Part shown: piece after piece, positions 30,625 through 64,000 of the stretch | How the letters are laid out: every line of letters begins with the position of its first letter | Position numbering within the stretch: position 1 is the stretch's first letter | Source: Ignavibacteriota bacterium | GTDB taxonomy: Bacteria > Bacteroidota > Ignavibacteria > UBA10030 > UBA6906 | Direction of reading: 5' to 3' | Assembly: GCA_963748405.1 (NCBI GenBank) | Contig: CAVVIT010000004.1 | Location: forward strand, 84,171-148,170 | DNA length: 64,000 nucleotides | Position numbers and translations under genes: made by a program | Notes under the pieces: model-generated | Database searches by the model: none | What the model was told of the DNA's origin: nothing | The model's input: only the letters and a program-made list of their open reading frames with translations

Positions 30625-30656
30625 TTGACAAATAACCACAGAGTGAGGAGTATATC

Positions 30657-38706: not shown

Positions 38707-40155
38707 ATGGAACAAGCCACCGGTCGCTCGCCGCTCGGGTCCGTTTCCCTGGAACTGCCGGACTATTCCGTCCGCCTCGGCGCGCTTCTGTGCGTCACGG
38801 TTCTGATCGGGGCGTACATCGCGAGCGTGGCCCTGGATTCCGCCGGGCTCTATTTCATCATCCTCCTCGGACTGGTCGTGCTGGGAACGGCCCTGATCCG
38901 GTTCGAAAGCGCCCTTCTGTTCGTCCCGATAACCATCACCAATCCCTACGTCCTCAAAGAGACGGGGACCAACATGAGCCTCTCGGAATACGTTCTCCTC
39001 ATCCTCTACATCGTCTGGTTCATACGACTGATCCCGTCGCGGGAGCGATTGCACTACCCGAAGGCGTTCGCCCTCCCGGTCATTCTGATCATCGGCACCG
39101 GCGTGCTTTCGCTGGCAGCGGCGCATTACCCCGGCACAAGCGCCCTGCAGGATATCCGGTATATTGAAGTCCTCGGGGTCCTGTTTTTTGTCATCGTCAA
39201 TGAGTGCCGGACTGAGAAACAGATCAAGTCGATGGTCTTCTTTCTCATGATCGGGGGGCTCATTGCCTCGCTCATCGGCATCGGGCAGTTCATCTTCTTT
39301 GCGGGGACGATGGGGGAGGTCCACCGCGTGTCGGGATTGCTCGGCGGCGCGTTCGGCGGCGTTGCCGGGACCACGGTGTGCCTCGCCTTTGGCATGCTCC
39401 TGTTTGACCCGTCACGTGGAAAGAAAACCTTCGCCGTCGTCGTCCTCGGCATCGCCCTGACGGCCCTTATCATGAGCCAGACGAGAGCCTGGATCGGCGG
39501 GGCGGCCATCGGTCTTCTGACCGTGATGCTGCTGGGGCGGGCGAAGGCGGCCCGATCCCTGATCCTGCTCGCGTGTGCAGGTTCGTTCGTCATCTACATT
39601 TTCACCCAGACCGGTGTCTTCGGCGCGTCCGGGAGCGGCGCATTGAGAGGGGCCCTGTCGAAAGCGTTCCGCTATGAGTCTCCGGCAGGAGGAGTGTCGG
39701 TGGGCGACCTCGCGCTGTACGAACGTCTCATCGTCTGGCGCAAAGCCGTCAGTCTCACCGCGCAAAACCCGCTGTTCGGGATCGGCGCAGGGAACCTCCG
39801 GTTCGACGACTACCTCCGCGCGCACCTCACCGCGCCGGTGCAGTCCGCCGGTTACGTGGACAACCAGTACCTGAATTTCTTTGCCGAAGCCGGACTCCTG
39901 GCAGGCATCGCGTGGCTGGCGTACATGTTTGTCTCGGTCCGGGCAGGACTGAGAGGACTGAGGAATTCCGCGGGGACGGCGTTGCACGCCGACGCCTACG
40001 GGCTGTTTCCCTCGCTCCTGCTGTTCGTCGTCGGATCGGTCTTCTGGGTGGTGACCGCCCAGCATGATTACTTTGCCGTGGTGGTCGTGCAGATCGCGCT
40101 TCTGTACAACGTGAGCCGCGGTGTCCCGGCGGCCGATCCCGCCGGAGCGGGCTGA
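38707..40155 (+). CDS. O-antigen ligase / Wzy-like polymerase family membrane protein (second copy)
   Basis: IMSQTRAWIGGAAIG and VDNQYLNFFAEAGLLAGIAWL match Wzy_C family motifs, with ~10-12 TM helices. Start ATG 38707 lies 5 nt after the upstream stop. Confidence 0.7.
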   Translation: MEQATGRSPLGSVSLELPDYSVRLGALLCVTVLIGAYIASVALDSAGLYFIILLGLVVLGTALIRFESALLFVPITITNPYVLKETGTNMSLSEYVLLILYIVWFIRLIPSRERLHYPKAFALPVILIIGTGVLSLAAAHYPGTSALQDIRYIEVLGVLFFVIVNECRTEKQIKSMVFFLMIGGLIASLIGIGQFIFFAGTMGEVHRVSGLLGGAFGGVAGTTVCLAFGMLLFDPSRGKKTFAVVVLGIALTALIMSQTRAWIGGAAIGLLTVMLLGRAKAARSLILLACAGSFVIYIFTQTGVFGASGSGALRGALSKAFRYESPAGGVSVGDLALYERLIVWRKAVSLTAQNPLFGIGAGNLRFDDYLRAHLTAPVQSAGYVDNQYLNFFAEAGLLAGIAWLAYMFVSVRAGLRGLRNSAGTALHADAYGLFPSLLLFVVGSVFWVVTAQHDYFAVVVVQIALLYNVSRGVPAADPAGAG

Positions 40156-41690
40156 TGCACGAACCGGGCGGACAATCGCACACTGCGCGGATGCTCGCGA
40201 AGAACACGCTGAACAACCTCGCGACGCAGGTTGTTCTCGTCCTGATTTCCTTTGTGAGCTTTCCCATACTTGTCCGGGGGATTTCCGCGGAGGGATTCGG
40301 ACTGCTGTCGCTCGTCTGGGTGCTGATCGGCTATTTCAGCATTCTCGATCTGGGCGTGAGCAGGGCGATTACAAAGTTCGTCGCGGAGTTCCTTGCACGT
40401 GATGATCAGGCACGGATACGGGAGATTACGTGGACGTCCCTTTCACTCAGCGCCGTCTTCGGAAGCGCCGTAGGCCTCCTGATCGTCGTCACGCGCGGGT
40501 ATGTCGTGACAGAGTTGTTCCACGTCTCGGACGCGATGAGCGCGGAGGCTCGCACCTCGCTGGTCATCGCAGCGGTGGGGATACCCTTCATGCTGGCGCA
40601 GGGGATCCTCCGGGGCGTTCAGATCGCGTACCAGCGGTTCGATCTCGCGAACGGATTCCAGGCGGCGACGGGCGCAATCCAGTGGGTGGGCTCATCCCTT
40701 CTCGTTGCGTTCGCCGGAGGGGGAGTGCGGGAGGTCGTTCTGCTCACCGTCGTGTCGCGCGTTCTCGCCGTGGCCGCATCGCTCGCCGTGCTGCCCGGCA
40801 TGATGCCGGGTGCGTACAGGAACGTGCGCGTCTGGGATCGGTCGCATGCGCGGACTCTCCTTTCCTTCGGGGGATGGGTCTCCCTGACGCAGGTCCTCGC
40901 GCCCCTGTTCACGTATGTGGACCGGCTGATGATTGCGTCGTTCATGGCGCTCACGTCTGTCGCGTACTATACCGTGCCCCAGGAGTCGGTCAACAGGCTG
41001 ATCATCCTGCCGATGAGCCTGACCACCGCCCTGTACCCGGTCCTGAGCGGGTGGTCAACGGGGATGCCGGGCTCAGAAAAGGCGGGCGCGATGTACACGC
41101 GCGCTGTCAAATACGTCGCGGCCCTGATTCTCCCGGTGGCCGTGGTCCTGTTTGTTTTTTCACGTGAGATCCTCCGGCTGTGGATGGGCGAGGAATTCTC
41201 GGCGCACGGGAGTCTTCCGCTGCAGATTCTCCTCGTCGGCCTCTTTTTTAACGCGGTCTCGCAAATTCCCGTGACGGCACTGCACGCCAACGGGCGCCCT
41301 GACCTCCCGGCGAAGTTCAATCTGGTGGAGCTTCCATTCATGATCGGGCTGAATCTGCTGCTGATCCCCCTGCTCGGCATCGCCGGTGCGGCGATTACCT
41401 GGACGCTCAGGGTCATGCTCGACGCCGTGCTCCTTTTTCGTGCCGCGAGAACGTACAGCCGGGGTTCGGAGTATTTCAGCGGCACGGAAAAGGCTCCCCG
41501 CACGCTTGTCATGCTCGCAACCGGACTGTGTCTTCTCGTCGCCCTGATGTGTTCCGTCCGGAATGAGCCGCTCCGTCTCGCCGCCGCCGCCGTGTTTGTC
41601 GCGGGATACGTCTACGGCGTCTGGAGGCACGGGTTTGACGACACGGACAGGGGGTTCGTGTTTGCATTGAAGAGCAAGTTTCTCGGATGA
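40155..41690 (+). CDS. wzx: Wzx-type oligosaccharide flippase (MOP superfamily), second copy
   Basis: AKNTLNNLATQVVLVLISFVSFPILVRGISAEGFGLLSLVW is a typical PST-family N-terminus. 12-14 TM helices. TGATG overlap with the upstream stop. An alternative start is MLAKNT at ~40191. Confidence 0.75.
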   Translation: MHEPGGQSHTARMLAKNTLNNLATQVVLVLISFVSFPILVRGISAEGFGLLSLVWVLIGYFSILDLGVSRAITKFVAEFLARDDQARIREITWTSLSLSAVFGSAVGLLIVVTRGYVVTELFHVSDAMSAEARTSLVIAAVGIPFMLAQGILRGVQIAYQRFDLANGFQAATGAIQWVGSSLLVAFAGGGVREVVLLTVVSRVLAVAASLAVLPGMMPGAYRNVRVWDRSHARTLLSFGGWVSLTQVLAPLFTYVDRLMIASFMALTSVAYYTVPQESVNRLIILPMSLTTALYPVLSGWSTGMPGSEKAGAMYTRAVKYVAALILPVAVVLFVFSREILRLWMGEEFSAHGSLPLQILLVGLFFNAVSQIPVTALHANGRPDLPAKFNLVELPFMIGLNLLLIPLLGIAGAAITWTLRVMLDAVLLFRAARTYSRGSEYFSGTEKAPRTLVMLATGLCLLVALMCSVRNEPLRLAAAAVFVAGYVYGVWRHGFDDTDRGFVFALKSKFLG

Positions 41691-43861: not shown

Positions 43862-45256
43862 ATGTCCAACCGCCGCGAAATCTTCGTCCTGCTGATTTCG
43901 GACCTGCTGATGATCTCGGCCGGGTGGACGCTCTATTTCATATTCCGCGTCCGGAGCGGGCTGTTCGAAGTGAGCGGCCAGCCCGATTTCTGGGCGCCGA
44001 TGTTCGCGGTAACGGCGTTCTGGCTTCTCCTTTTTTTCGTTGTCGGGCTGTACCGGCCCTGGTACGCGGCCTCCCGGTTTGACGAGCTGGCTCTTCTGTT
44101 CAAGACCGTGGTGATGGGATCGCTGATCGTGTTCTTCGCGGTGTTCCTTGACGACGCCGGGAGGCCCACCGGGACGAATTCCCGGCTCCTGATCGCGGTG
44201 TACTGGGCCGACGTGCTCCTCATGGTGTCACTGGGACGCATGGTCCTCCGCAGCATCCAGCGCCGGATGCTCATCGCGGGGATCGGAGTGCACAACACGC
44301 TCATCGTCGGGAGCAGCGCCCGGTCGCGCGAGCTCTGCAGTGAGGTGGAGAAGTATCCGGCGCTGGGATACAAGGTCGTGGGCTTCGTCGGGCTCGACCG
44401 CCGCAGGTCCGGGCAGAATTATCGAAAGATCCGGGTCATGGGGGGGATCGACGACCTCTCGGAAATCATCCGCCGGGAGGATGTCCTCGAGGTGCTTGTC
44501 GCGCTCGACTCCGCCGATCACGGGCGCCTTCTCGAGATTATGAGCAAATGCAACGGGCACAAGGTCAGCATCAAGATCATGCCCGACCTGTACGACATCA
44601 TCAGCGGCCAGGCCAGGACGAATCAGATCTATGGGTTCCCGCTGATCGAGATCACCCCTCAGCTGATGCCCGCCTGGGAGGAATCGACGAAACGGCTTCT
44701 CGACGTTGCGGTGTCGGTGGCGATCCTCGTGGTGGGACTTCCTGTGTGGATCCTCATCGCCGTGGTCATCAAGCTGGAATCCCCGGGTCCGGTGCTGTAC
44801 CGCCAGGAACGGGTGGGCAAGGACGGCGCCGTGTTCAACATCGTGAAATTCCGGTCGATGGAGAGGGACGCGGAAAAAAGCGGACCGAAGTGGGCGGGAA
44901 GACGGGACCCGCGCATTACGGGCTTCGGCAGGATCCTGCGCCAGCTCCATCTCGATGAGATTCCGCAGATGGTCAACGTCCTGAAAGGCGACATGAGCCT
45001 GATCGGGCCGAGGCCTGAACGACCGGTGTTCGTCGAACGGCTGTCGAAGGAGATCCCCCTGTACCAGAGGCGCCTGAAAGTCAGGCCGGGGATCACCGGG
45101 TGGGCGCAGGTGAAACAGCGGTACGACGATACGATCGAGGACGTGAAAAAGAAAGTGCAGTACGACCTGTTTTACATCGAGAACATGTCTCTCAGGATGG
45201 ACTTCAAGATTTTGCTCAATACAGCGTACCACGTGCTCCTCGGCCGCGGAAGGTAG
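43862..45256 (+). CDS. undecaprenyl-phosphate hexose-1-phosphate transferase (WbaP/EpsB-like polyprenyl glycosylphosphotransferase, priming enzyme)
   Basis: 4-5 N-terminal TM, a CoA-binding-like linker (NTLIVGSSARS...), and a complete Bac_transf domain: KRLLDVAVSVAIL...PGPVLYRQERVGKDGAVFNIVKFRSM...DPRITGFGRILRQLHLDEIPQMVNVLKGDMSLIGPRPE...PGITGWAQV. Confidence 0.9.
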   Translation: MSNRREIFVLLISDLLMISAGWTLYFIFRVRSGLFEVSGQPDFWAPMFAVTAFWLLLFFVVGLYRPWYAASRFDELALLFKTVVMGSLIVFFAVFLDDAGRPTGTNSRLLIAVYWADVLLMVSLGRMVLRSIQRRMLIAGIGVHNTLIVGSSARSRELCSEVEKYPALGYKVVGFVGLDRRRSGQNYRKIRVMGGIDDLSEIIRREDVLEVLVALDSADHGRLLEIMSKCNGHKVSIKIMPDLYDIISGQARTNQIYGFPLIEITPQLMPAWEESTKRLLDVAVSVAILVVGLPVWILIAVVIKLESPGPVLYRQERVGKDGAVFNIVKFRSMERDAEKSGPKWAGRRDPRITGFGRILRQLHLDEIPQMVNVLKGDMSLIGPRPERPVFVERLSKEIPLYQRRLKVRPGITGWAQVKQRYDDTIEDVKKKVQYDLFYIENMSLRMDFKILLNTAYHVLLGRGR

Positions 45257-46438: not shown

Positions 46439-47155
46439 GTGCCAAGGACCCTCGTCGTCATCCCGACATTCAATGAATCGGAGAATATTCCGCGGCTGAT
46501 CCCTCTGATCCTCCAGCAGGGTGAAGGGATCGAAGTGCTCGTCGTCGACGACAGCTCTCCCGACGGTACGGGGGACCTCGTCCGGAAGATCGGGGAGAAG
46601 GACCCCCGCGTGCACCTGATGGAGCGCGCCGCCAAAATGGGGCTCGGCACCGCGTATGTCGCCGGGTTCCGGTACGCGCTTGAGGGAAATTACGACTTCG
46701 TGTTCGAGATGGATGCGGACTTTTCCCACAACCCGAAGGAGATCCCCGCGTTTCTCCGGAAGACCGCCGAAGCGGACCTTGTTGTCGGATCCCGGTACAC
46801 GAACGGCGTGCGGGTGCTGAACTGGCCGATGCAGAGGCTTCTCCTGAGCTGGACGGCAAATATCTGGACAAGGTTCTGGACCGGCCTTCCGCTGAACGAT
46901 GCAACGGGCGGTTTCAAGTGCTACCGCATCGAGGTCCTCAGGGGCATCAACCTGGACAAGATCCGCTCGAACGGTTATGCGTTTCAGATCGAAATGAGCT
47001 ACATGGCCTGGCGCAAGGGTTTCCGTCTGCGGGAGATCCCGATCGTGTTCCTGGACCGGAACGCCGGGCAGTCGAAGATGTCGAAGCACATCGTCTACGA
47101 AGCGTTTTTCATGCTGTGGAAACTGAGGTTTCGTGGTATGCTGAACAGGCTCTGA
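46439..47155 (+). CDS. polyprenol-phosphate glycosyltransferase (GT2, DPM1/ArnC-like)
   Basis: LVVIPTFNESENIPRLI...EVLVVDDSSPDGTGDLVRKI...FVFEMDADFSHNP, GGFKCYRIEVL give the DPM1-like architecture. GTG start. Confidence 0.8.
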   Translation: MPRTLVVIPTFNESENIPRLIPLILQQGEGIEVLVVDDSSPDGTGDLVRKIGEKDPRVHLMERAAKMGLGTAYVAGFRYALEGNYDFVFEMDADFSHNPKEIPAFLRKTAEADLVVGSRYTNGVRVLNWPMQRLLLSWTANIWTRFWTGLPLNDATGGFKCYRIEVLRGINLDKIRSNGYAFQIEMSYMAWRKGFRLREIPIVFLDRNAGQSKMSKHIVYEAFFMLWKLRFRGMLNRL

Positions 47156-47159
47156 CGGC

Positions 47160-49145
47160 GTGATGGAACTCTCCGTGGTTATCGTCAACTACAATGTCCG
47201 TCAGTTCCTCGAGAATTCGCTGACCTCGATCTTCCGGGCGCTCGAAGGGATTGAAGGGGAAGTCTTTGTCGTCGACAATGCATCCGATGACGGGAGCCCG
47301 GACATGGTGAAGTCGAAGTTCCCGTCGGTCCATCTCATCGAGAACGCGAACAACGTCGGGTTCGCGAAGGCGAACAACATCGCGCTCCGCGAGGCGCGGG
47401 GGAGCTTCCTTCTTCTCATCAATCCGGATACCGTCGTCCAGGAAGACACGTTCCGTGTGATGCTCGCCTTCTTCCGGGAAGTCCCGGACGCCGGGCTCGC
47501 CGGATGCCGGATCCTGAATCCCGATGGCTCGTTCCAGCTTCCGTGCCGCAGGAGCTTTCCGACCCCCTGGGTCGCGTTCACGAAGATCTTCGGTCTCGCG
47601 AGTCTCTTCCCCGGATCGAGGGTTTTTGGAAAGTACAACCTGACGTATCTGAGTGAGGATGAGACCTATCCGGTCGACGCGGTGAGCGGTTCGTTCATGA
47701 TGGTACGGCGGGAGGCGTATGCACAGGTGGGGGGGCTGGACGAGAGCTTCTTCATGTACGGGGAAGACCTGGACTGGTGCTACAGGATCGGGAGGGCGGG
47801 GTTCAGGGTATACTACGTGCACACGACCAAGATCATCCATTTCAAAGGGGAAAGCACCAAGAGAAGCGACATCGACGAGATCAGGCTCTTTTACAGGGCG
47901 ATGCAGCTGTTTGTCCGGAAGCACTTCAGCCGTTCGCGCATCGTCCTTCTTTTCCTGAATCTCGGCATCATCGTCCGGGGGTCCGCGGCGTCGCTCGCCC
48001 GTCTCGCGCGGCCGATGGAGCTCGCCCTGCTGGACGGCCTGCTCGTCATCGGGGCGCTTCTGGCCGGAGAGTTCATCTACCGTGGGGGGTTGTTTCGCTT
48101 TCCGGCATATGCGTATCCGGTGATCTGGCTGGTACCCGCTTCGCTGATCGTCCTCCTCTCGGCTGCGGCGGGATTGTACACGACTGCCCGTTATGCCGTG
48201 AACCGCTCGTTCGGCGCGGTCGCGGCGGGGTACGTGCTTGTCTCCGCGACGGTGTTTTTCGTGAAGGACTTCGCATTCAGCAGGGCGGTCGTCCTCCTGG
48301 CCGGGATTTTCAGTCTGCTGTTTCTTCCCGGATGGCGGTTCGGGGTCCGGCTGTTCGGGCGGGGGGGGGCGCGGAAAACGGTCTTCGGACGGCGGACAGT
48401 CATCGTGGGCACGGGGCCGTCTGCACAGGAGGTGCTCAGAAAGCTCCGGGCCCGGGTCGATGACGGGTATGATGTGCTGGGCTTCATCGATACGAGCCTC
48501 CGGAGGGTCGGCGAAAAAGTGGCGGGCGTGGAAATCATCGGGAGCATCGACAATGCGGGAAAAGTGATCGATGAACGCCGCGTGGGAGAGGTGATCTTCT
48601 CGACGGACGGGCTCTCGTATGAGAACATCCTCTCCGTCATCGCGCGGAGCAGGAACAGGGCCATCAACTTCCGCCTTGTTCCGGGGAGCCTGGAATCGAT
48701 CATCGGGAAGACGAGCGTCGATGAGCTCGATACCCTCCCCCTGGTGGACATCGAGTACAACATCCACCGGCCGGGGAACAGATTCGTGAAGCGGCTCTTC
48801 GACCTGACGGCCGCGTGCATCCTCCTTGTCACGGTCTATCCCTTCAGCCGCGCGTTTCGCGGTGCCGATCCGGGAGCAAAGCCCCGCCTGTCCCGTCTTC
48901 CGGACGTGTTCCGCGGCCGGTTGAGCATCGTGGGGCTCCCCCCGGGGGACGCGCAGGCCGCGGGGGGCGGTCCCGACGTGAACGGTTACCTGGGACCCGA
49001 GGGACTCACCGGGCTCCTGCAGATCCACACGCACGAAGACCTCGACATGCAGGAACGCGAGCAGTACAAGCTCTACTACGCAAAGAACCAGTCCTTGATG
49101 CTCGATTTGCAGATCATCGCGAAATCGCTTTTCAGCCGGCGCTGA
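47160..49145 (+). CDS. fusion protein: N-terminal GT2 + TM/CoA-binding-like linker + degenerate C-terminal sugar-transferase (PHPT-like) remnant
   Basis: N-terminal [14 protein letters not shown]...[12 protein letters not shown]...[23 protein letters not shown] is GT2. The middle has 4-5 TM plus [17 protein letters not shown]...YDVLGFID (WbaP-like linker). The C-terminus [14 protein letters not shown] ... then only ...[27 protein letters not shown]. The PHPT catalytic core (KFRSM...DELPQ...PGITG) is absent. Confidence 0.65.
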
Positions 49146-49174
49146 GCGCACCACATTTTTACAGGAGAGGCCTT

Positions 49175-50125
49175 ATGGCGAAATCGGTACTGGAATTCGA
49201 GAAGCCCATCATCGAGCTCGAACAGAAGATGGAAGAGATGCGGCGGTACGCCGACAATCCCGACATCGCGATCGAAATCGGCAAAATCGAGAAACGCGTG
49301 AACCAGCTCCAGCTCACCGTCTACGCGGGGCTCACCCGCTGGCAGAAGGTTCAGCTTGCGCGCCATCCGGACCGTCCGTACACGCTCGACTACATCGGCA
49401 TGATCACGAAGGATTTTATCGAGCTCCACGGCGACCGGTACTTCAGGGACGACAAGGCGATCGTCGGGGGCTTCGCCCACATCGACGACAGGAAGGTGAT
49501 GCTCATCGGCCACCAGAAGGGGCGCGACACGAAGTCCAACGTCTACCGGAATTTCGGGATGCCGAACCCCGAGGGGTACCGGAAGGCCCTCAGGCTCATG
49601 AAGCTGGCGGAAAAATTCAAGATTCCGGTCGTCACCCTTCTGGATACTCCGGGCGCATTTCCGGGCCTGGAGGCCGAAGAACGGGGGCAGGCCGAGGCGA
49701 TCGCGCGGAACCTCCTGGAGATGGCACGCCTCCGCGTCCCCATCGTCGTGGCGATCATCGGCGAAGGGGCATCCGGGGGAGCCCTGGGGCTTGGTGTCGG
49801 CGACAGAATACTCATGATGGAGAATTCCTGGTATTCCGTGATCTCGCCGGAGTCCTGCTCCAGCATACTCTGGAGAAGCTGGGATTTCAAGGAACAGGCG
49901 GCCGAGGCTCTGCAGCTCACGGCGCCTGATCTGAAAAAGCAGGGGATCATCGACGAGATCATGCCTGAACCGCTCGGGGGCGCTCACCGCAACCCCGAAC
50001 AGGCCGCGCGGGTACTCAAAGACGCAATCCTGCAGGAACTCAAAGTCCTGGCGAAAGTCAAACCCGAAAAACTCCTGGAACGCCGCATCGAGAAGTTCAG
50101 CAAGATGGGCGTCTGGGTCGGTTAA
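49175..50125 (+). CDS. accA: acetyl-CoA carboxylase carboxyltransferase subunit alpha
   Basis: Full-length AccA: [61 protein letters not shown]. The upstream in-frame part of ORF 48815..50125 is rejected as Arg/Pro-rich. Confidence 0.9.
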
Positions 50126-51616: not shown

Positions 51617-53071
51617 ATGCTTGCACAGATCAGACGCCTGGGGACGGACACCGCGATTTACGGGATCAGCACCGTCGTCGGGAGATTCCTCAGCTTCCTC
51701 CTCGTCCCGTTCTACACGAATGTCATCCGTCCCGGCGAATACGGTATCGTCGCGAACGTCTATTCCATCATCGCCTTCCTGAACGTGATCTGGGTGTACG
51801 GGATGGAATCGGCGTACTTCAAGTACTCCTCCACGGGAGAAATCGGCACCCCGCGGCAGAATTTCAGCACCCCGTTCATCTCCCTGTGTGCGACGTCCCT
51901 GCTCCTTTCGGGGGCCCTTGCCGCTCTTGCTCCCGCCGCCGGGAGATGGATGGCCATCCCGCCCGGACACGGATCCATCGTGCCGTACACCGCGGGAATA
52001 CTCTTTCTCGATACGCTCGCAATCGTCCCGTTCGCTTCGCTCAGGATGGACCGCAAGCCTTTTCTCTTTGCGTCCCTGAAGGTCCTCAATATCGGCGTGA
52101 ACGTGGCGTGCAACCTTGTGTTCCTCCTCGTGTTTCACGCCGGTGTGGAGGGGATATTCATGAGCGGGCTTATCGCATCGGGGGTGACGGTCATAGCGCT
52201 GGTCCCCACGATCGTCCGGCAGTTCACAGGCGAGTTCTCCGTTCCCTTGTACAGGGCGCTCCTGAAATTCGGGCTCCCGTACATACCCGCGGGGCTTGCC
52301 GCCATCGTCATCCAGGTGATCGACAGGCCGATCATGCTTCTCCTGACGAGCCTCGCGGTGGTGGGGGTGTACCAGGCGAATTACCGTCTCGGCATATTCA
52401 TGATGCTCATCGTCTCGATGTACGATTACGCCTGGCGGCCGTTCTTTCTCTCCCACGCTGCAGAGCCGGGAGCGAAGGCTCTCTTCGCGCGCGCTCTGAC
52501 GTACTCCGTGGCCGCAATGGCGGGCGTTTTCCTTGCCGTCTCAATGTTCATCGGCGACGTCGTCAGGATGCGGATCTTCGGCAGGTACATCATCCACCCC
52601 GACTACTGGGGAGGGCTGTCAATCGTCCCCGTCGTCCTGATTGCCTACATGTTCCTCGGCGTCTACAACAACCTCGTGGCGGGAGTCTACATCGAGAAGA
52701 GGACGCAACGGCTGCCGGCGATCACGCTGGCGGGAGCCCTCGTCAACATCGGTGCCAATTTCCTGCTGATCCCCGTCATGGGAATGATGGGAGGAGCACT
52801 TGCGACGCTCCTCGCCTACGCCGTTATGGCGATCGTGCTGTATGTTGACGTTCAGAGATTCTACCCCGTCCGCTATGAATGGGGAAGGATCGCCCGCCTG
52901 GCGGCGATCGGCTCGCTGACTTATTTCCTGTTCCTCTTCGTGAATGCCGGGGCGTATCACATCGCGTGGAAGAGCTTCCTTCTCCTTTTCTTCTGCGCTT
53001 CCCTCTTCCTCACGCGGTTCTTCCTGCCTGAAGAAATCACCGCCCTCCGCAGGCTTATCCGCAAATCGTAA
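51617..53071 (+). CDS. MOP-superfamily oligosaccharide flippase family protein (Wzx/MurJ-like)
   Basis: 484 aa with ~14 TM helices. N-terminal TAIYGISTVVGRFLSFLLVPFYTNVIRPGEYG is the polysaccharide-biosynthesis-protein family pattern. Located among housekeeping genes. Confidence 0.65.
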   Translation: MLAQIRRLGTDTAIYGISTVVGRFLSFLLVPFYTNVIRPGEYGIVANVYSIIAFLNVIWVYGMESAYFKYSSTGEIGTPRQNFSTPFISLCATSLLLSGALAALAPAAGRWMAIPPGHGSIVPYTAGILFLDTLAIVPFASLRMDRKPFLFASLKVLNIGVNVACNLVFLLVFHAGVEGIFMSGLIASGVTVIALVPTIVRQFTGEFSVPLYRALLKFGLPYIPAGLAAIVIQVIDRPIMLLLTSLAVVGVYQANYRLGIFMMLIVSMYDYAWRPFFLSHAAEPGAKALFARALTYSVAAMAGVFLAVSMFIGDVVRMRIFGRYIIHPDYWGGLSIVPVVLIAYMFLGVYNNLVAGVYIEKRTQRLPAITLAGALVNIGANFLLIPVMGMMGGALATLLAYAVMAIVLYVDVQRFYPVRYEWGRIARLAAIGSLTYFLFLFVNAGAYHIAWKSFLLLFFCASLFLTRFFLPEEITALRRLIRKS

Positions 53072-55848: not shown

Positions 55849-56760
55849 ATGCAAACCCCGCCGGGTCATTACGAACTTGCAGTTGCATACCGCGTGTGCC
55901 CGCGACTCTCACGTGCGGCCGAACCGTTCGGGCTGTCGAAGCTCGATTTCACATCTCTCTGTCTCCGGTCTTTCCGGGAAAGCCTGGGACCGCTGCGGAC
56001 AAAAATCTGGGCGATTCTGGACGATTGCCCGGCGGAATATGAAGACCTTTTTCGCGGGCATTTCCGGGAGGAGGATCTCGAGATCGTGCGCTTTCCGCAC
56101 GCAGGGAATGCAAAGACGTTTATGGCGCAGGTCGACATCCTCACGCGTCAGAAGGATGCACCGCTCGTCTATTTTGCCGAGGATGACTATCTCTACCGGC
56201 CGGGGATGTTGGCCGTGATGGCGGGCTTCATTGCGTCGCACCCGGATGTGGATTTTGTCTCGCCGTTCGATCACCCGGACTACTACTCGCTCCCCCTCAC
56301 GCGCCCCCGCACCGTCCTCAGGGTTTACGGGTCCTCGCACTGGCGCACGGCGGGTTCGACGTGCCTGACGTTTCTGACGCGCCGGGAGACCCTCGAGCAC
56401 ACGCGTTCCATCTTCGGGACGTACGCACGGAGAAACTATGACTCGAGCCTCTGGCTGATGCTGACGAAACAGCGGATCCTGAATCCCTTTGCCTTGCTCC
56501 GCCTCCTCGGCGGCACCAGGGTTGAACGGATGACCGCCGCAAAGGCCTGGTTCTTCGGTTGGCGCCAGTTGCTCTTCGGGCGGGCGTGGAAGTTGTGGAC
56601 ACCCGTTCCCTCAATGGGAACCCACGTCGTATCGGGCGGGCTTGCGCGGGGGGTGGATTGGACCCTCTACGGACTCCCTGAATCGCGGGTGACGGCCCGG
56701 CCGGAGGCGCGCGACAGTCTGAACATCGAGACAGCGGGAGAGAGAAAGGGAGTACGGTGA
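55849..56760 (+). CDS. hypothetical protein (possible GT-A-like nucleotide-sugar transferase fold, DxD-like YFAEDDYLY)
   Basis: Clean 303-aa ORF in high-GC host DNA. No confident family. TATAAT hexamer 5 nt upstream of the ATG. Confidence 0.45.
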   Translation: MQTPPGHYELAVAYRVCPRLSRAAEPFGLSKLDFTSLCLRSFRESLGPLRTKIWAILDDCPAEYEDLFRGHFREEDLEIVRFPHAGNAKTFMAQVDILTRQKDAPLVYFAEDDYLYRPGMLAVMAGFIASHPDVDFVSPFDHPDYYSLPLTRPRTVLRVYGSSHWRTAGSTCLTFLTRRETLEHTRSIFGTYARRNYDSSLWLMLTKQRILNPFALLRLLGGTRVERMTAAKAWFFGWRQLLFGRAWKLWTPVPSMGTHVVSGGLARGVDWTLYGLPESRVTARPEARDSLNIETAGERKGVR

Positions 56761-56793
56761 CGAGGGGGGCTCAGATGAGCCCCCCGGCTTTTG

Positions 56794-56867
56794 TGCGCCT
56801 GGAGGGATTTGAACCCCCAACCCTCAGATCCGAAGTCTGATGCTCTATCCAGTTGAGCTACAGGCGC
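56794..56867 (-). tRNA. tRNA-Arg (anticodon TCG)
   Basis: The reverse complement GCGCCTGTAGCTCAACTGGATAGAGCATCAGACTTCGGATCTGAGGGTTGGGGGTTCAAATCCCTCCAGGCGCA folds as a cloverleaf: acceptor 7 bp, D-stem GCTC/GAGC, anticodon stem TCAGA/TCTGA with loop CTTCGGA (U33, anticodon TCG, purine at position 37), T-loop TTCAAAT. No encoded CCA. Confidence 0.85.
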
Positions 56868-57068
56868 TGCATATTCGAGCTGTTTTAGCCGATTCCTGGC
56901 CGGAAGAACCTCTCCGTGGACAGGTTTACGTCCAATACTTGTTACAATTTGGTAACAATTGGTATTAGGCCTTGCCGGCTTGGATTGGCTTATGCGACAA
57001 TAAGGTAACAAGTGTTGACCGGGAATTCAAGGAGGAAAGAATCAGGCACGGTCACGTATATGATAGAG

Positions 57069-57101
57069 GAGCCCAATGAAATTTGTCGGGCTCTTTTTTT
57101 T
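57069..57101 (+). terminator. intrinsic terminator-like hairpin (GAGCCC...GGGCTC) followed by T8
   Basis: Seen in sequence: 6-bp GC stem, 13-nt loop, then TTTTTTTT. Orientation suits plus-strand transcripts entering the island from the host side. It abuts the 3' end of the minus-strand repressor gene. Confidence 0.5.
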
Positions 57102-57528
57102 ACGTCACGAGCGCCGTCACCACTCGCACGATCCTCTCCCGTTCCTCTTGGCTGAAGCGCTTCTTCCCTGATGCGACCAGGACCGAGGCTATATCTGAGA
57201 GAATCAAACTGAGTTCCTTTTCCGGACGCCAGTCGATATCCTGCAATAAGGCAAACCGGTTCTTTTTGCTGTCAAAGTGCACTCTTGCTCCCATTGATCT
57301 CGCTAAGGAGGCAAGAGTCGATCTTCGAGGTGGTCTCGTGACCTGTTTCTCCGATTTGTTCAGGATTTGGAAGATCGTCGCGGCACTGAGCTCGGCTCTC
57401 TTGGATAGGGTGAACTGGGATATTCCCTTTTCATCCATGATCCAGCGAATGAGCTTCTGGACGCCGGACTGTGAATAGGGGGCCGCAAAGATGGCTTTTA
57501 CTGCTCGGGCGGTGATCTTGGGTTTCAT
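57100..57528 (-). CDS. XRE-family helix-turn-helix transcriptional regulator (phage-repressor-like)
   Basis: GISQFTLSKRAELSAATIFQILN is a canonical HTH_XRE (helix-turn-helix) motif. 142 aa. Divergently arranged from the island replication genes. Low-GC codon usage. Confidence 0.75.
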   Translation of the reverse strand: MKPKITARAVKAIFAAPYSQSGVQKLIRWIMDEKGISQFTLSKRAELSAATIFQILNKSEKQVTRPPRRSTLASLARSMGARVHFDSKKNRFALLQDIDWRPEKELSLILSDIASVLVASGKKRFSQEERERIVRVVTALVT

Positions 57529-57554
57529 AGGGGTTACTTGGGCTTTTATTGTTT

Positions 57555-57583
57555 AATATAGTTTTTTTATTTGACTTTATCAA
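57555..57583 (-). promoter_or_regulatory. sigma70-like promoter for the repressor gene (-35 TTGATA, 17-nt spacer, -10 TATATT on minus strand)
   Basis: The reverse complement of the plus-strand sequence reads TTGATAaagtcaaataaaaaaacTATATT. It lies ~25 nt upstream of the repressor ATG at 57528 and overlaps the rightward promoter P1. Confidence 0.5.
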
Positions 57584-57599
57584 TGGAATTGCATATAGT
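57571..57599 (+). promoter_or_regulatory. sigma70-like promoter P1 (TTGACT, 17-nt spacer, TATAGT), rightward
   Basis: Seen in sequence: TTGACTttatcaatggaattgcaTATAGT. It is followed by the 12-bp palindrome ACGGGATCCCGT at 57610-57621, a candidate operator. Confidence 0.5.
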
Positions 57600-57630
57600 A
57601 GACTTGGGGACGGGATCCCGTTGAAACCCC

Positions 57631-57659
57631 TTGACAGAGAGCCTGATTTTGAATAGAAT
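57631..57659 (+). promoter_or_regulatory. sigma70-like promoter P2 (TTGACA, 17-nt spacer, TAGAAT), rightward
   Basis: Seen in sequence: TTGACAgagagcctgattttgaaTAGAAT, ~150 nt upstream of the gene at 57809. Confidence 0.5.
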
Positions 57660-57808
57660 AGGGTAGGGGTCATTCGATCCCCCCAGCCTTCCGAAAAATG
57701 ATCGGTCGGCACGTGGAGTTGGATGAAGAGATGGATGCTGACGATGGTCATCGATTGACGTACCCGCCTTTTCTACCCAATCCCTAAGAAGCCAAAGGAA
57801 CAAGAATC

Positions 57809-58078
57809 ATGAAGCATTTTCTCACTAAAGATCTATATCTATCCAGCTACCTCGCTTCTTCAGGTTGCCCGCTGGAGTCGCACAACCGAGTTGACGGAAT
57901 AACGATGTTCTCCTTCCTCCGCACTCGCGAGCTGGAGATGCTCGTTGAATCGTACTTCTCATTGAAGGCATCCGTAAATCCGATAAAGTATGATGAAGCC
58001 ATGAGGAACCTACGAACCCTGGCAATCGGTCCCAAGTCTCGACACGAAAATACTCTATCCAGCCGGGTGGCTGTGTGA
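57809..58078 (+). CDS. hypothetical small protein (89 aa) of the mobile element, first gene of the rightward operon
   Basis: AAGGAA RBS 6 nt before ATG. Low-GC codon usage consistent with neighbouring island genes. No recognisable family (positionally Cro/excisionase-like). Confidence 0.5.
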   Translation: MKHFLTKDLYLSSYLASSGCPLESHNRVDGITMFSFLRTRELEMLVESYFSLKASVNPIKYDEAMRNLRTLAIGPKSRHENTLSSRVAV

Positions 58079-58153
58079 GTTGAGAGCGACGGTAGTCGGC
58101 TCTATTTGAATGTGAGTCTGAAATGGCTCACCTAAAGACCAATATGTTCAACA

Positions 58154-60286
58154 ATGTTAAATGATGAAGATGTAAAACAAACTGACGCATCTGTTTCTGC
58201 GACACCCAATGACCAGGCACCGCCTGGGATCCTCGATTCAATCCTCGTTTCATATTCTGAACGCGTTACAGAACCGCAGACCACGCGCGTAACACTTGGT
58301 TCGATACTTACTGAGATTCAATCATCACCGGATCTTCAGCACAAGATTGCCGCTGTCCGTAGCCTTTCCGAACCTAAAGAACGGCAGGATCTGAAGAGGA
58401 AGACCCTCCCGTGGTTTTCGATGGCCGAGTACAAGAACAACCATCGGGACAACCTCTCCTTTCTATCGACGAAATATGTCATCCTCGATCCAGATCACAT
58501 CGCTGGACACCTCAGTGACCTGCTGGTCAAGGTCAGAACCGATCCAAAAATCTTTGTTGCCTTCGTCTCTCCATCGGGAGATGGGCTCAAATTGATTGTC
58601 GAGCTCGAGAATGCCGTGACCGCCGCAGAGGACTTCCGGGGGGCGTTCGGCTACCTTCGGGACATCATCGAGAAGGAATACGGAATTGCTATCGATGGGG
58701 ACGACGACCCTGCCCGAGCGTGCTATCTGTCATATGATCCTGAGCTATGGGTCAATCTGAACAGAAAAGCCATGCAAATACCCACGGTAACAAAGGTGGA
58801 TTCGTTACAGGTTAGGATTGATCTCTCTCGCACATCGTCGATGCTGGAAGCTCTTTCCGGTTCAACGTCACCTGGGCGAACCCATAAGGCAACGCAAATC
58901 ATTGGGCGTTTCATCGAGAGAGGAATCCGACTGGATGAGGCCATGGAATTGGTAAGGATCTGGGACCAGTCGAAGAATACCCCTCCTCTTGGGGAGCAGA
59001 AGATTGCGTCGACCGTGCGAGACATGTATAAGCGGTACAATGACGGAGGGTTCGCGCAAAAGCTGGATCGTTTCTACTCCTACCGGAGCGATATCTACGA
59101 TGTCGGAATCGTCGGAGAGAACTTCTTTCTGGAGAATGTCGGACAGAGAAAGTTCTTTATCCAGACAGATGCCGCGGATGTTGAGACGCAGAAGCGGTTC
59201 CTGGAACATGTTGTGAAGGAGAAACACATACGCCACCTACAGCGAATCGATCATCTCGGGGACATGAATGCCGAGAAATCTGTCGTTGAATACGTCTCCG
59301 ACAAGGGTCTCTTTGAAGTGCACTATTCGCCTGTCGCGGTAAGGGTCAGGGGCAACGATTTCGTTGAAACCTGGCTGTCGTCAACTTTTGGAATCCATAA
59401 GGATTTCATCAAGGAGTGGCTCGCGATGTACTGCTACACGAATTACCGCAAGCTCCCGACATTGGTTCTGAAAGGTGATCGTGGAACCGGAAAGAACACA
59501 TTTGCGGAGTCAGTCCTCTCCATCTTTCCATCGATATCTCAGTTCTGGCACGGGGAAGAGAAGGGCTTTACCCCCGAAGTGCAAAAGAAATTGCTCATTG
59601 CAGATGAGTCGGTTTCGGCTAATGAAAAGCAATACCGAATGCTGAAGCAGAGATCGGGCCAGAAGATGTCAGTCGTCAATCAGAAATTCCTCCCGGAGTA
59701 CCAGGTCCTCAACAACATGAACATCATCATCATGTCGAACGAACACACGCCGATATTCGTGCAGAAGGACGAGGAGCCCACGAGCGTGAAAAACAACCAG
59801 TTCTTCGTCTACACGTTGCCGAAGCTGGAAGGGGAGATTGACCCTGATTTCGGCCAAAAAATCGAAGATAGGATGGGGCACTATGTAAGGACGGAACTAA
59901 GGAATGTCTACATGAAGGCTCAGGCATATGCCGGTTGTCGGTACTCCATACCGACGCCCATCACGGATGACGAGAAGGCTCTCTTCAACGTGAACATGAC
60001 TGGGCTGGAAGCCGAAGGCATGAAATTCCTCCAGAAAATGGTGGAGGCGAGCGGTTCGGCCTATACGAGTTTCTTCGAGAATGGGCTGTTCCCATCGTCA
60101 TTCATCGATGCCTTTACGATCTCAAAGGGCTACACGAAGAATGGAGTTATCCGAAACCTTAAGGAGAAGGATTACCTGGTGCCTGCCGATCCAGCCAGGA
60201 AAATGGTCAAAGGGGAGAGGCAATACTGCTACCAGATGACCGACAAACTGAAATCGTGGTACGAAAACCAGAAGCTTGCCCAGTGA
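58154..60286 (+). CDS. replication protein: N-terminal primase-polymerase (AEP/VirE_N, BT4734-like) domain fused to a C-terminal D5/P4-type SF3-helicase-like P-loop NTPase
   Basis: N-terminus: YVILDPDH (DxD), FVSPSGDGLKLIV (sGxGxH/K-type motif), ACYLSYDPE (third acidic motif) are archaeo-eukaryotic primase-like. C-terminus: VLKGDRGTGKNTFAES (Walker A variant) and KKLLIADES (Walker B), with the domain organisation of phage/plasmid primase-helicases. Confidence 0.7.
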   Translation: MLNDEDVKQTDASVSATPNDQAPPGILDSILVSYSERVTEPQTTRVTLGSILTEIQSSPDLQHKIAAVRSLSEPKERQDLKRKTLPWFSMAEYKNNHRDNLSFLSTKYVILDPDHIAGHLSDLLVKVRTDPKIFVAFVSPSGDGLKLIVELENAVTAAEDFRGAFGYLRDIIEKEYGIAIDGDDDPARACYLSYDPELWVNLNRKAMQIPTVTKVDSLQVRIDLSRTSSMLEALSGSTSPGRTHKATQIIGRFIERGIRLDEAMELVRIWDQSKNTPPLGEQKIASTVRDMYKRYNDGGFAQKLDRFYSYRSDIYDVGIVGENFFLENVGQRKFFIQTDAADVETQKRFLEHVVKEKHIRHLQRIDHLGDMNAEKSVVEYVSDKGLFEVHYSPVAVRVRGNDFVETWLSSTFGIHKDFIKEWLAMYCYTNYRKLPTLVLKGDRGTGKNTFAESVLSIFPSISQFWHGEEKGFTPEVQKKLLIADESVSANEKQYRMLKQRSGQKMSVVNQKFLPEYQVLNNMNIIIMSNEHTPIFVQKDEEPTSVKNNQFFVYTLPKLEGEIDPDFGQKIEDRMGHYVRTELRNVYMKAQAYAGCRYSIPTPITDDEKALFNVNMTGLEAEGMKFLQKMVEASGSAYTSFFENGLFPSSFIDAFTISKGYTKNGVIRNLKEKDYLVPADPARKMVKGERQYCYQMTDKLKSWYENQKLAQ

Positions 60287-60292
60287 GGAGAC

Positions 60293-60501
60293 GCATTGCC
60301 CATCGATTGCCTGTAGTTGGGCAATCCTTGGGCAGTGTTTTGAGTAGGAATAGCAATGCTTTTCATATGATTTGCCCATTTACCTGTAAGAGATTCAGTT
60401 AGAGAAAGAAAAGAAAGTGGTGAAAGAGAATATAGCGTTGAACCTTCAGCGCACGGGGTATAGGTGAAAATTGAAAATGGGCAGGCAAATGGGCAATTGC
60501 G
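60293..60501. repeat. iteron-like array: at least 6 copies of TGGGCA(A/G)/TGCCCA in both orientations, with an adjacent AT-rich tract (putative replication origin)
   Basis: Seen in sequence: ATTGCCCA (60295), TTGGGCAAT (60317), TTGGGCAG (60328), TTTGCCCAT (60371), AATGGGCAG (60476), AATGGGCAATTGC (60487), then an AT-rich tract at 60570-60600. A further copy CTTGGGCAATTG lies at 61181. Confidence 0.5.
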
Positions 60502-60847
60502 AGGCCAAAAACAAAAAGATAAAAGCCCAAAAGCCTGAACGACGGGGGGAGGGGCTTTCCGCGAAGCAGATCTTTTCTTTTAGTTTTTATTTTGGATCCG
60601 CCCGCTGGCTCGCGTTATTCGGAGAAGATTAGAAAGCACTCTCCCTCTGTGGTGGATCTCGGGGATAATATGTCGAAATCCGGTCAATCTGAAGCCGATT
60701 CAGGGAAAAGGTGACGGCAACACAAGAAAAATAAACAGGGCGCTCGGTAACGACCACAGTTCCGGAAAAGACTCGGGCCAGTGAAAACGTATCACCATCT
60801 TCAGGATGAACGGCTCGAGACTCGAAGACATTACAAAGGAGAGCTAT

Positions 60848-61024
60848 ATGACAACTGAGAAAGCACAGAAGATCCTCAACGCCATCAAGAAACGAGACCG
60901 TCTCGCCAGCAAGCACTGGACCCCCTACCAAGGTCCAGCGGATTGGGACTTCATTGTACTGAACTCATCAAAAGAGGAACTGGAAGAAGGGAAGGAGGAG
61001 AAGTCGGAGGTCAGCAATGGATGA
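60848..61024 (+). CDS. hypothetical small protein (58 aa)
   Basis: AAGGAGAG RBS 5 nt upstream of ATG 60848 (MTTEKAQKILNAIKK...). The longer ORF from 60806 lacks an RBS. Confidence 0.35.
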   Translation: MTTEKAQKILNAIKKRDRLASKHWTPYQGPADWDFIVLNSSKEELEEGKEEKSEVSNG

Positions 61025-61193
61025 GGATATGCTGGCTCGGATGAATGACAATCAGAACAGGGACCGCATTCTCGAAGATCTCAACCGCTCAACTCTGGAC
61101 GACGTCGGGCCGGTGGGCAAAACGCAGGCGGCAAAAATGCTGCAGGAGATGAACAATCTCTCAAGTGAGGAGTCCCGACTCTTGGGCAATTGA
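61017..61193 (+). CDS. hypothetical small protein (58 aa)
   Basis: ATG overlaps the upstream stop (ATGGATGA), which suggests coupling. MDEDMLARMNDNQNRDRILEDL... Followed by the terminator hairpin. Under 60 aa, so not in the ORF track. Confidence 0.3.
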   Translation: MDEDMLARMNDNQNRDRILEDLNRSTLDDVGPVGKTQAAKMLQEMNNLSSEESRLLGN

Positions 61194-61198
61194 AAAGC

Positions 61199-61235
61199 CG
61201 TCCCAATTTCTTGGCCGTTGGGACTTTGTAATCCC
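61199..61235 (+). terminator. rho-independent terminator-like hairpin GTCCCAA(n11)TTGGGAC + TTTGT
   Basis: Seen in sequence immediately after the stop at 61193: ccGTCCCAAtttcttggccgTTGGGACtttgtaat. Confidence 0.5.
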
Positions 61236-61688
61236 CCCTCAAAGAATTCCCGAGAATTACCGTGGTTGACAGATTTGCTGCTCGAAAATCTCGGTTGAGA
61301 ATTCTCCAAAATCTCGATCCCTGGGGTATATATGATGAAGGTGCCATTCCTGCGAAACATCAAAATATACTTGCGATAAAGGCAAATGAGTGACTTGACA
61401 CGAAAGTTGCAGACAATAGGAAGAAATTCGTCAGGTTCTGGCGTAGACTTCTCGGGACTGACAGATTTTATTAGGTTTGCGAATCGCGGATCAAGGGGAT
61501 ATATTAGGTGACATTGATAGCCGCCTCGTTTGATTGCATCGTATCTGATCGATGATAACTAAGTCCTGTTTGCTCAGCCGAATGGCCAGTTGAGCGATTG
61601 GATCCGATGCAGCGAGTCAATCCTCGCTATTCCGTTCTTACACCCTTCATCTGTTTTTCACAATTCCTCTCTGACTCGGAGTTGGATC

Positions 61689-63185: not shown

Positions 63186-63207
63186 AACCCCGAGAGAAGG
63201 AGAAAAG

Positions 63208-64000
63208 ATGAACTCCAAGTCAGTTTGTGGAAGATTTCTGGTCGGCCTCCTCGTGCTCGTTAGGCCGTTATCCGCCGTTATGGGTCAATCGTCGGGAATG
63301 GAAGTTCACTCCTCAATGAACATTCAATTCCTTGTAGTAGACCCGATTGGTCGAAAGACTGGCATAGACGGCCAGAGCAATACATTTTTTGGGGATATCC
63401 CGTCGTCCGTCTACGATACACTTTCAAGTGGTGACATCGATACATCAAAGCCAAATACATTGTCTCGCGAATGCATATTTGGGTGGGGTGCTGATTCTTT
63501 GATCCAAGGCAATTACTACATCAAGGTTTACGTCCTACAAAGCGGCAATTTCTGGATAGACAACGTTGTCACTCGGGTTCCGACTTTTTACCACCAAGCA
63601 GTCAACCACGTTGGGACCGCTGGTGATACATATCTGTACAGAATCCCATACAGCTACAATCCTACAAGCCCAATAACGCTTGACACTTTGACAACCACAA
63701 GAGAAGTGCAGGGTGGCATATTTAATCCAACAGGAACAAGTACATTGTCCATCAAAGTGAAGGCATCACAAAACCAAGGCACGCGGGACACCCTGACAGG
63801 AGGCACTGTGACGGTCCGTTGGCGGTCAAGGTATACGTTGTCTATAGGGACAGTCTCTTCGCCGACTTACGGCTTCTCCGCATTCGGGCCAGTTGATTCT
63901 CAGGGTAGCTATAAGTATCAGACGTTTCGGACAACAAACCACGTTCCTGTTGCTTGGACCGCTGGAACGGAGTATGAGATTCTTACTGTAAGCATAATTG
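63208..64000 (+). CDS. secreted hypothetical protein (3'-partial, runs off window)
   Basis: GAGAAGGAG RBS 8 nt before ATG. Signal-peptide-like MNSKSVCGRFLVGLLVLVRPLSAV. Open frame to the window end. Thr/Ser-rich, predicted beta-rich. Confidence 0.5.
   Translation, partial: MNSKSVCGRFLVGLLVLVRPLSAVMGQSSGMEVHSSMNIQFLVVDPIGRKTGIDGQSNTFFGDIPSSVYDTLSSGDIDTSKPNTLSRECIFGWGADSLIQGNYYIKVYVLQSGNFWIDNVVTRVPTFYHQAVNHVGTAGDTYLYRIPYSYNPTSPITLDTLTTTREVQGGIFNPTGTSTLSIKVKASQNQGTRDTLTGGTVTVRWRSRYTLSIGTVSSPTYGFSAFGPVDSQGSYKYQTFRTTNHVPVAWTAGTEYEILTVSII

Follow-up and report, generated by a model that had tools for sequence, protein, structure and literature searches.

A GT2 glycosyltransferase fused to a degenerate large phosphoglycosyl transferase scaffold in an Ignavibacteriota contig and its relatives across the FCB group

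Here, we report a fusion gene at positions 47160 to 49145 (plus strand) of a 64,000-nucleotide stretch (the window) of an Ignavibacteriota bacterium (GenBank assembly GCA_963748405.1, contig CAVVIT010000004.1, positions 84,171 to 148,170, forward strand), which joins a family 2 glycosyltransferase (GT2) to the membrane module and a vestige of a large monotopic phosphoglycosyl transferase (Lg-PGT). Its product (the fusion protein) is probably an active, membrane-anchored GT2 carried on a catalytically dead Lg-PGT scaffold, descended from a bifunctional phosphoglycosyl transferase (Bi-PGT) and extending the polyprenyl-diphosphate (polyprenyl-PP)-linked sugar made by a co-encoded PGT, a reading that we hold with moderate confidence.

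The gene is a single uninterrupted open reading frame (ORF) of 661 amino acids (aa), with its stop codon at 49143 to 49145; the public gene call starts at the ATG at 47163 (660 aa). Pfam matches comprised Glycos_transf_2 (PF00535; aa 5 to 189, 77.7 bits, above the gathering score), CoA_binding_3 (PF13727; aa 341 to 508, 61.5 bits against a cut-off of 25), and Bac_transf (PF02397; aa 577 to 657, 41.7 bits against a gathering threshold of 27), the last covering only positions 91 to 174 of the 179 in the profile. The accessory architecture of Lg-PGTs is present in order: a four-helix transmembrane (TM) bundle comes first, then the PF13727 domain, and then a beta-hairpin (Table 1). The PF13727 region matched WbaP (8T53) residues 151 to 350 (phmmer, E value 6e-12), and the hairpin linker, strongly kept among close orthologs, aligns with DLYDIISGQARTNQIYGFPLIEITPQL of the neighboring polyprenyl sugar-phosphotransferase (PHPT), itself an Lg-PGT. 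An original prediction, made by a model from the letters and a list of ORFs, had described the same ORF as an N-terminal GT2 of approximately 250 aa, four or five TM helices, and a WbaP-like CoA/NAD-binding linker of the kind that precedes Bac_transf. The ORF coordinates and the Pfam matches agree with its GT2 and its linker, and the peptides that it quoted were all located (aa 413, 544 to 562, and 634 to 658). Hydropathy and an AlphaFold model settled the helix count at four TM helices, the extra element being a hydrophobic helix (259 to 280) that runs into the first TM helix, and placed a half reentrant helix at 542 to 560.

A first AlphaFold model, built with 17 close orthologs, had a mean predicted local distance difference test score (pLDDT) of 65.8 and returned generic GT-A matches only in Foldseek; a second, built with 68 diverse members, reached a pLDDT of 89.4 and a predicted template modeling score of 0.82. 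The latter shows a GT-A domain, helices at 260 to 308, 321 to 336, 347 to 367, and 375 to 399, a Rossmann-like domain at 410 to 507, hairpin strands at 513 to 515 and 520 to 522, and a helix at 538 to 558 with a short continuation at 560 to 565. In the remnant of the PGT domain, it places helices at 576 to 584, 630 to 642, and 646 to 659 and strands at 588 to 591 and 614 to 617, the first of these helices starting inside the preceding variable linker.

The C-terminus was aligned with the canonical PHPT, WbaP (8T53), PglC (8E37), and an intact relative of the fusion protein (P0228, described below). Lost are the second arm of the reentrant helix, the KFRSM beta-hairpin, the DPRxT...LR segment, and the Asp-Glu dyad, the position of which is occupied by S578-R579; the tail from the KRxxD motif onward is 118 aa long in the fusion protein and 188 aa long in the canonical domain. 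Asp and Glu stand at the dyad columns in none of 33 diverse family members (approximately 10 lineages). The active site of PglC is centered on this dyad, Asp93-Glu94 (PMC10186338), which is also conserved in WbaP (PMC10942596), and the alignment shows a PGT half that would be unable to use the canonical mechanism. What survives at the C-terminus amounts to approximately 85 aa and includes the helix and beta-hairpin that follow the dyad (cf. DEIPQMVNVLKGDMSLIGPRP; hairpin LPxVxxGxxSxVG) and, as the counterpart of PGITG, the motif EGLTGLLQI, in which GLTG is kept.

By phmmer, the remnant matched WbaP 435 to 517 and PglC 137 to 180, with K544/R545 equivalent to PglC Lys7/Arg8, Y560-P561 to Ser23-Pro24, and D649 to Asp169. 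In PglC, Lys7-Arg8 and Ser23-Pro24 together enforce the reentrant topology, and Asp169 is the salt-bridge partner of Lys7 (PMC6133551). The Lys-Arg motif and the Pro break of the putative reentrant helix align with PglC, and the second arm is cut to approximately six residues (560 to 565). Because the retained residues map to structural determinants of PglC and the dyad is gone, the remnant reads as the structural staple of the PGT fold, kept after the chemistry was lost. The original prediction had the catalytic core (KFRSM, the dyad, and PGITG) missing and the C-terminus reduced to the first reentrant helix and a short terminal segment, and it proposed alignment with PF02397 and the PHPT as a check. 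That alignment confirms the deletion of KFRSM and the dyad and corrects its extent: the PGITG counterpart is present, the helix and beta-hairpin survive, and positions 91 to 174 of the Bac_transf profile remain.

The fusion protein belongs to a large family. In a word-indexed protein search, more than 120 ortholog clusters were found at 61 to 84% identity, all 650 to 690 aa long and with the same Pfam set, from sources named as Ignavibacteriota and Bacteroidota metagenome-assembled genomes, and relatives are encoded in at least 599 genomes (one genome per GTDB species). Locus analyses used the best 80 loci of the genome scan, which came from Ignavibacteriota, Kryptonia, Neomarinimicrobiota, Calditrichota, Chlorobiota, Balneolales, Bacteroidales, Saprospiraceae, Chitinophagales, and Flavobacteriales; most span the full query length at 33 to 68% identity, and the ORFs recovered from 37 of them mostly have the same reduced C-terminus. 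By this distribution, the fusion is evidently an ancient and very widespread family of the Fibrobacteres-Chlorobi-Bacteroidetes (FCB) group and not a broken gene, a breadth that had escaped the original prediction, which treated a single gene; its question of whether orthologs keep the truncated form is answered by the 599 or more species genomes that do.

Conservation across phyla was computed on 33 full-length members. Positions conserved in at least 90% number approximately 70 of 250 in the GT2, 6 in the TM bundle, 3 in PF13727, and 7 in the PGT remnant (K544, D548, V591, G592, G615, Y640, and D649), which makes the GT2 half the main target of selection and, by a wide margin, the most constrained part of the protein. 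In the GT2, this level is reached by D39, N40, S42, D44, NPDT (88 to 91), GEDxD (201 to 205), HxKGES (227 to 232), and a family signature insertion (...FGxYNLTY, 130 to 163), and the acidic residues D39, D44, D90 (of NPDT), E202, and D203 are invariant or conserved in at least 90%. In GT2 enzymes, such acidic motifs serve in nucleotide-sugar and metal binding and as the catalytic base. The PF13727 glycines G417, G441, and G461 are conserved across phyla, and the domain and the hairpin as a whole are moderately conserved. Conservation is lowest in the linker standing in for the catalytic core; this linker varies in both length and sequence.

How the vestige arose is suggested by relatives in different stages of decay. 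A HMMER search of 1.84 billion representatives was made, and the best 150 were scored against the canonical catalytic domain. One of them, P0228 (755 aa), has an intact Bac_transf domain (profile positions 1 to 175, 197.5 bits) with KFRTM, DPRVT, HLDELPQ, GPRPERP, and PGLTG. In P0133 (720 aa), the domain is degenerate (1 to 177, 70.9 bits) and the dyad is lost; P0134 (761 aa) matches at 78 to 178 (56.4 bits); P0140, P0166, P0126, and P0122 (691 to 717 aa) have mid-size deletions; the fusion protein of the window and most relatives (approximately 660 aa) have the large deletion; and Bacteroidia members (approximately 650 aa) have the glycine motif further eroded. Two Calditrichota-like loci, L041 (9986 to 11671) and L055 (9983 to 11638), encode proteins of 551 to 561 aa that end right after PF13727 and keep no remnant, so the vestige can be lost completely; both still adjoin a DPM1-like GT2 gene and accA, neighbors of the fusion gene in the window. 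The P0228 GT2 has 53% identity to that of the window, compared with 38% for the paralogous GT2 at 41687 and 25 to 27% for unrelated GT2s of the P0228 locus; it bears the family signature in a slightly different form, and P0228 branches first in an outgroup-rooted neighbor-joining tree (weak evidence on its own).

The simplest reading of this series is that the ancestor would have been a bifunctional GT2-Lg-PGT in which PGT catalysis was lost early and the vestige was then trimmed variably by lineage. Of the two origins proposed in the original prediction, a pseudo-enzyme fusion and a domain swap, the first stands, the dyad and approximately 70 core residues being gone and the GT2 intact; the second is not supported, an intact member and graded intermediates pointing to decay in place.

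Some features of individual relatives are recorded here. The 12-kb contig of P0228 has no separate PGT, and its neighborhood differs from that of the window (locus L081, GCA_030620115.1; two GT2 genes, DUF218, two radical-SAM genes, one of them B12 binding, and a GWxTD-domain protein). Family member P0209 (963 aa) has a C-terminal SPOR (peptidoglycan-binding) domain at aa 892 to 954, and P0231 (848 aa) and P0238 (1,359 aa) have long C-terminal extensions without a domain match; all three may be real fusions or gene-calling artifacts, and a Rosetta-stone check of these long relatives allowed no partner to be inferred.

In the window, the fusion gene comes after a Wzx/Wzy-type polysaccharide locus (Wza-like exporter, Wzz, Wzy, flippase, and two GT2s) and stands in the order Lg-PGT, DegT aminotransferase, DPM1-like GT2, fusion gene, accA, and YbgC-type thioesterase. 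The Lg-PGT, taken to be an intact PHPT by the original prediction, does match the whole Bac_transf profile (Table 1). Synteny was assessed with tblastn of the window neighbors against the 80 loci, within the fetched flanks. The DPM1-like GT2 was found near the fusion gene in 41 loci, accA in 43, and an ortholog of the Lg-PGT in 36. In most of its loci, the DPM1-like gene immediately precedes the fusion gene; in Balneolales, the PGT is in between (fusion, PGT, DPM1-like GT2, accA). Outside Bacteroidia, most lineages share the block PGT-(DegT)-DPM1-like GT2-fusion-accA (Ignavibacteriota, Kryptonia, Neomarinimicrobiota, Calditrichota-like, Chlorobiota, and Balneolales loci), and a functional link between the fusion protein and the upstream PGT is likely on this ground. 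Such a link would be compatible with both roles raised in the original prediction, in which the scaffold serves the GT2 in acting on an undecaprenyl-PP-linked acceptor or the protein regulates the priming enzyme. Polysaccharide genes normally vary between strains; the constancy of the block across phyla is unusual for such genes and thus points to a conserved pathway.

Table 1. Segments of the fusion gene and neighboring genes used in its interpretation (window positions)
Feature	Coordinates	Strand	Remarks
GT2 (GT-A fold) catalytic domain	47160..47924	+	aa 1-255
Membrane region, four TM helices homologous to Lg-PGT	47925..48359	+	aa 256-400; helices ~282-307, 314-343, 350-369, 370-396
PF13727 Rossmann-like domain (the domain of unknown function [DUF] of Lg-PGTs)	48372..48683	+	glycine-rich IVGTGPSA motif
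Beta-hairpin linker, counterpart of the domain-swapped WbaP dimerization hairpin	48684..48770	+	aa 509-537
First reentrant-helix arm; second arm cut to ~6 residues	48771..48854	+	phmmer match to PglC 8E37 chain residues 8-29
Variable linker replacing ~70 catalytic-core residues	48855..48890	+	ends at former Asp-Glu dyad position S578-R579
Retained C-terminal PGT remnant	48891..49145	+	helix and beta-hairpin (GLTGLLQ), two C-terminal helices with YYAKNxSxxLD
Bona fide full-length Lg-PGT (PHPT)	43862-45256	+	Bac_transf 1-178, 232 bits; CoA_binding_3; TIGR03025 442.8 bits, above cut-off 295.55
Soluble DPM1-like GT2, 238 aa	46439-47155	+	PF00535 96.2 bits; 4-nt gap to fusion gene

Taken together, these features fit the following scheme. 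An ancestral GT2-Lg-PGT would have performed priming and the next glycosyl transfer in one protein. Its PGT active site would then have disappeared through the losses described above, with selection probably retaining the four-TM bundle and the nucleotide-binding, dimerizing PF13727 domain with its beta-hairpin. The presumptive staple of the PGT fold would also have been kept, in the form of the Lys-Arg motif with the Pro break, the helix-plus-hairpin unit, and the C-terminal helices bearing the Lys-pairing Asp. The dead scaffold would keep the GT2 at the cytoplasmic face of the membrane. Priming would now fall to the separate full-length Lg-PGT of the same conserved block, and the GT2 would probably add a sugar to the polyprenyl-PP-linked product of that enzyme; the activity of the GT2, its acceptor, and its physical coupling to the PGT are parts of the scheme that we infer.

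Several points weigh against this scheme. The activity, donor, and acceptor of the GT2 are deduced, and the structural role given to the remnant is derived from alignment with PglC. The four TM helices might suffice as an anchor, and L041 and L055 dispense with the remnant. For the ancestral-bifunctional scenario, the support consists of a simple neighbor-joining tree and a single intact protein out of the best 150. Finally, the fusion genes of Bacteroidia, Saprospiraceae, and Flavobacteriales lie among housekeeping genes (recR directly upstream in 9 of 24 loci, with an E2 dehydrogenase or DnaQ-like exonuclease downstream) with no PGT nearby, so the link to a neighboring PGT is not universal; this context suggests a core function without a linked PGT.

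A possible, if on balance unlikely, alternative is that the dead module heterodimerizes with the upstream Lg-PGT through the four-TM/DUF module and the swapped hairpin, acting as a partner or regulator in a priming complex that would couple or regulate the first (PGT) and second (GT2) steps. It overlaps the explanation preferred above and makes that interaction the main reason for retention of the scaffold, with docking of the DPM1-like GT2 as a possible addition. WbaP is an obligate dimer through its DUF and its domain-swapped hairpin, and the DUF binds uridine nucleotides and senses UMP (PMC10942596); since the fusion protein has the same module, it could plausibly pair with itself or with the real PGT. 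The DUF with its glycine-rich motif and the hairpin are all present in the fusion protein; the PGT ortholog and the DPM1-like GT2 are syntenic with it across phyla, the latter gene ending 4 nt before it in the window; and the only segment with a pLDDT of <50 in the monomer model is the hairpin tip (524 to 531), in line with WbaP, for which monomer models misplace the hairpin at moderate confidence, as it is domain swapped in the dimer (PMC10942596). Against heterodimerization, identity between the fusion protein and the neighboring PHPT is only 25% across the shared membrane module (BLASTP), which leaves a homodimer no less likely; the Bacteroidia members have no adjacent PGT; and the DUF and hairpin are conserved only moderately across phyla.

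An extended form of this idea, to which we give a small chance, would make the family a core enzyme of envelope glycans in the FCB superphylum, with the dead PGT as an assembly platform that forms a heterodimer with the Lg-PGT, docks the DPM1-like GT2, and, as a fixed priming complex, channels a polyprenyl-linked intermediate toward a conserved glycoconjugate. The DPM1-like GT2 might need a membrane partner because it has no TM segment. The taxonomic range of the type IX secretion system (T9SS) appears similar to that of the fusion family, which makes a conserved surface-anchor glycolipid a candidate product. Should the platform exist, bacterial glycan priming would gain its first described pseudo-enzyme subunit.

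There is likewise a slim prospect that the GT2 is a synthase of the dolichol-phosphate mannose synthase (DPMS), GtrB, or ArnC type that makes an undecaprenyl phosphate (Und-P)-linked sugar, with the PGT-derived module kept for Und-P binding. Its closest relatives in sequence and structure are of the COG1216, rhamnosyltransferase, MftF, TarS, GlfT2, and PglI types, which use sugar acceptors, and its closest similarity is not to the DPMS, GtrB, or ArnC catalytic domains. A dedicated candidate for such a synthase is already encoded immediately upstream: the DPM1-like GT2 resembles polyprenyl-phosphate sugar synthases (DPM1), with PpgS, AglJ, and ArnC as its best NCBIfam matches, all below cut-off. 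In addition, the family does not conserve the GPRP Arg: L593 takes its place here (VGLPP), and close orthologs have R or L.

It is very improbable that the truncated Bac_transf domain still functions as a PGT through other catalytic residues, which would make the protein a genuine Bi-PGT. Several motifs persist, and the Pfam score clears the gathering threshold; against this, the dyad is absent in 33 of 33 diverse members, an unconserved segment stands in place of approximately 70 core residues, KFRSM and DPRxT among them, and a separate intact PGT is co-encoded. The NCBIfam PGT models fall far below their cut-offs (TIGR03025, 164.2 bits against 295.55, its main stretch being model positions 3 to 276 on aa 292 to 562; TIGR03023, 130 bits against 410.75; TIGR03022, 99.2 bits against 403).

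A pseudogene, a frameshifted gene, or an assembly-collapsed copy of the PHPT gene (43862 to 45256), for which the truncated Bac_transf domain alone speaks, has a negligible probability and is rejected: the gene is one ORF, a tblastn comparison of the PHPT with every frame of 47000 to 49400 gave an in-frame match only, no meaningful nucleotide similarity to 43862 to 45256 was found (best blastn match, 27 nt, E value 0.41), and the same reduced form, with purifying selection on the retained motifs, recurs in the ortholog clusters and species genomes counted above. Neither outcome that the original prediction had named as refuting it, an intact PHPT core or such a copy, was thus found.

Other features of the window were recorded. 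Two Wzx/MOP-type flippase genes flank the cluster, at 40155 to 41690 (+) and 51617 to 53071 (+); in 20 of the 80 loci, the one downstream accompanies the fusion-accA-thioesterase-nadC block. At 27916 to 31826 (+), an FG-GAP/TIG repeat protein is followed by a protein with a T9SS sorting domain (Por_Secre_tail), which is consistent with an FCB-group organism with a T9SS. GC content falls from approximately 0.61 to 0.48 to 0.54 over the last 8 kb (56000 to 64000), from beside a tRNA gene at 56794 to 56867 (−), a pattern typical of an integrated island.

Public labels for the family are "O-antigen biosynthesis protein" and "WcaJ-type glycosyltransferase." Because the Bac_transf threshold is passed, censuses of monotopic PGTs (monoPGTs) or Bi-PGTs would count the presumably inactive domains of hundreds of species as priming enzymes. 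The family also offers a natural dissection of the monoPGT fold, indicating which parts selection would keep once catalysis is gone, and its graded members, from those with the whole domain to those with none, could serve in studies of reentrant-helix insertion and of how the scaffold works. The cross-phylum block, like the housekeeping surroundings in Bacteroidia, suggests an uncharacterized, conserved glycoconjugate pathway of the FCB group rather than a strain-variable capsule or O-antigen gene. Bi-PGT fusions and the Lg-PGT accessory module are already known; apparently undescribed so far is an ancient and large lineage whose PGT half seems to have decayed to a conserved vestige. No description of a decayed Bi-PGT lineage or of a GT2-pseudo-PGT family was found in the literature searched, the O'Toole 2021 PNAS network study being outside the scope of that search.

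Compared with Lg-PGTs (WbaP, WcaJ, and CpsE; 8T53), the fusion protein shares the four TM helices, PF13727, the beta-hairpin linker, the Lys-Arg motif, the first reentrant arm with its Pro break, the helix and beta-hairpin, and the C-terminal helices; it differs in having an additional N-terminal GT2, in lacking the dyad, the KFRSM hairpin, the DPRxT...LR segment, and the second arm, and in scoring below the NCBIfam cut-offs. The module of four TM helices and DUF also occurs on PglF-type dehydratases (PMC10942596). A further case lies in the window at 32224 to 34224 (+), where a 666-aa protein combines a WecA/MraY-type polytopic PGT with the N-terminal module of Lg-PGTs and has no monoPGT catalytic domain (Glycos_transf_4, aa 96 to 251; TIGR02380, aa 28 to 358; PF13727, aa 449 to 599; TIGR03025 positions 2 to 221 at aa 401 to 625). 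Because it is found on both, the module is portable, apparently as a membrane and dimerization scaffold; neither the PglF dehydratases nor the WecA-like protein has a monoPGT vestige, whereas the fusion protein keeps approximately 120 residues of it.

Among GT-A GT2s (WbbL-type TIGR01556, PglI-like AvpGT, TarS/TarP, GlfT2, and WrtF), no curated family cut-off was reached by the fusion GT2, which has its own signature insertion and a PGT-derived membrane module. Bi-PGTs, in which a glycosyltransferase or an acetyltransferase is fused to a monoPGT core (PMC10942596, PMC11626204), are similar in having a GT2 and a monoPGT-derived domain in one ORF, and P0228 would be a true example with both halves intact, the only one among the best 150; in nearly all other members, the PGT half is gutted, so that they would be monofunctional at most.

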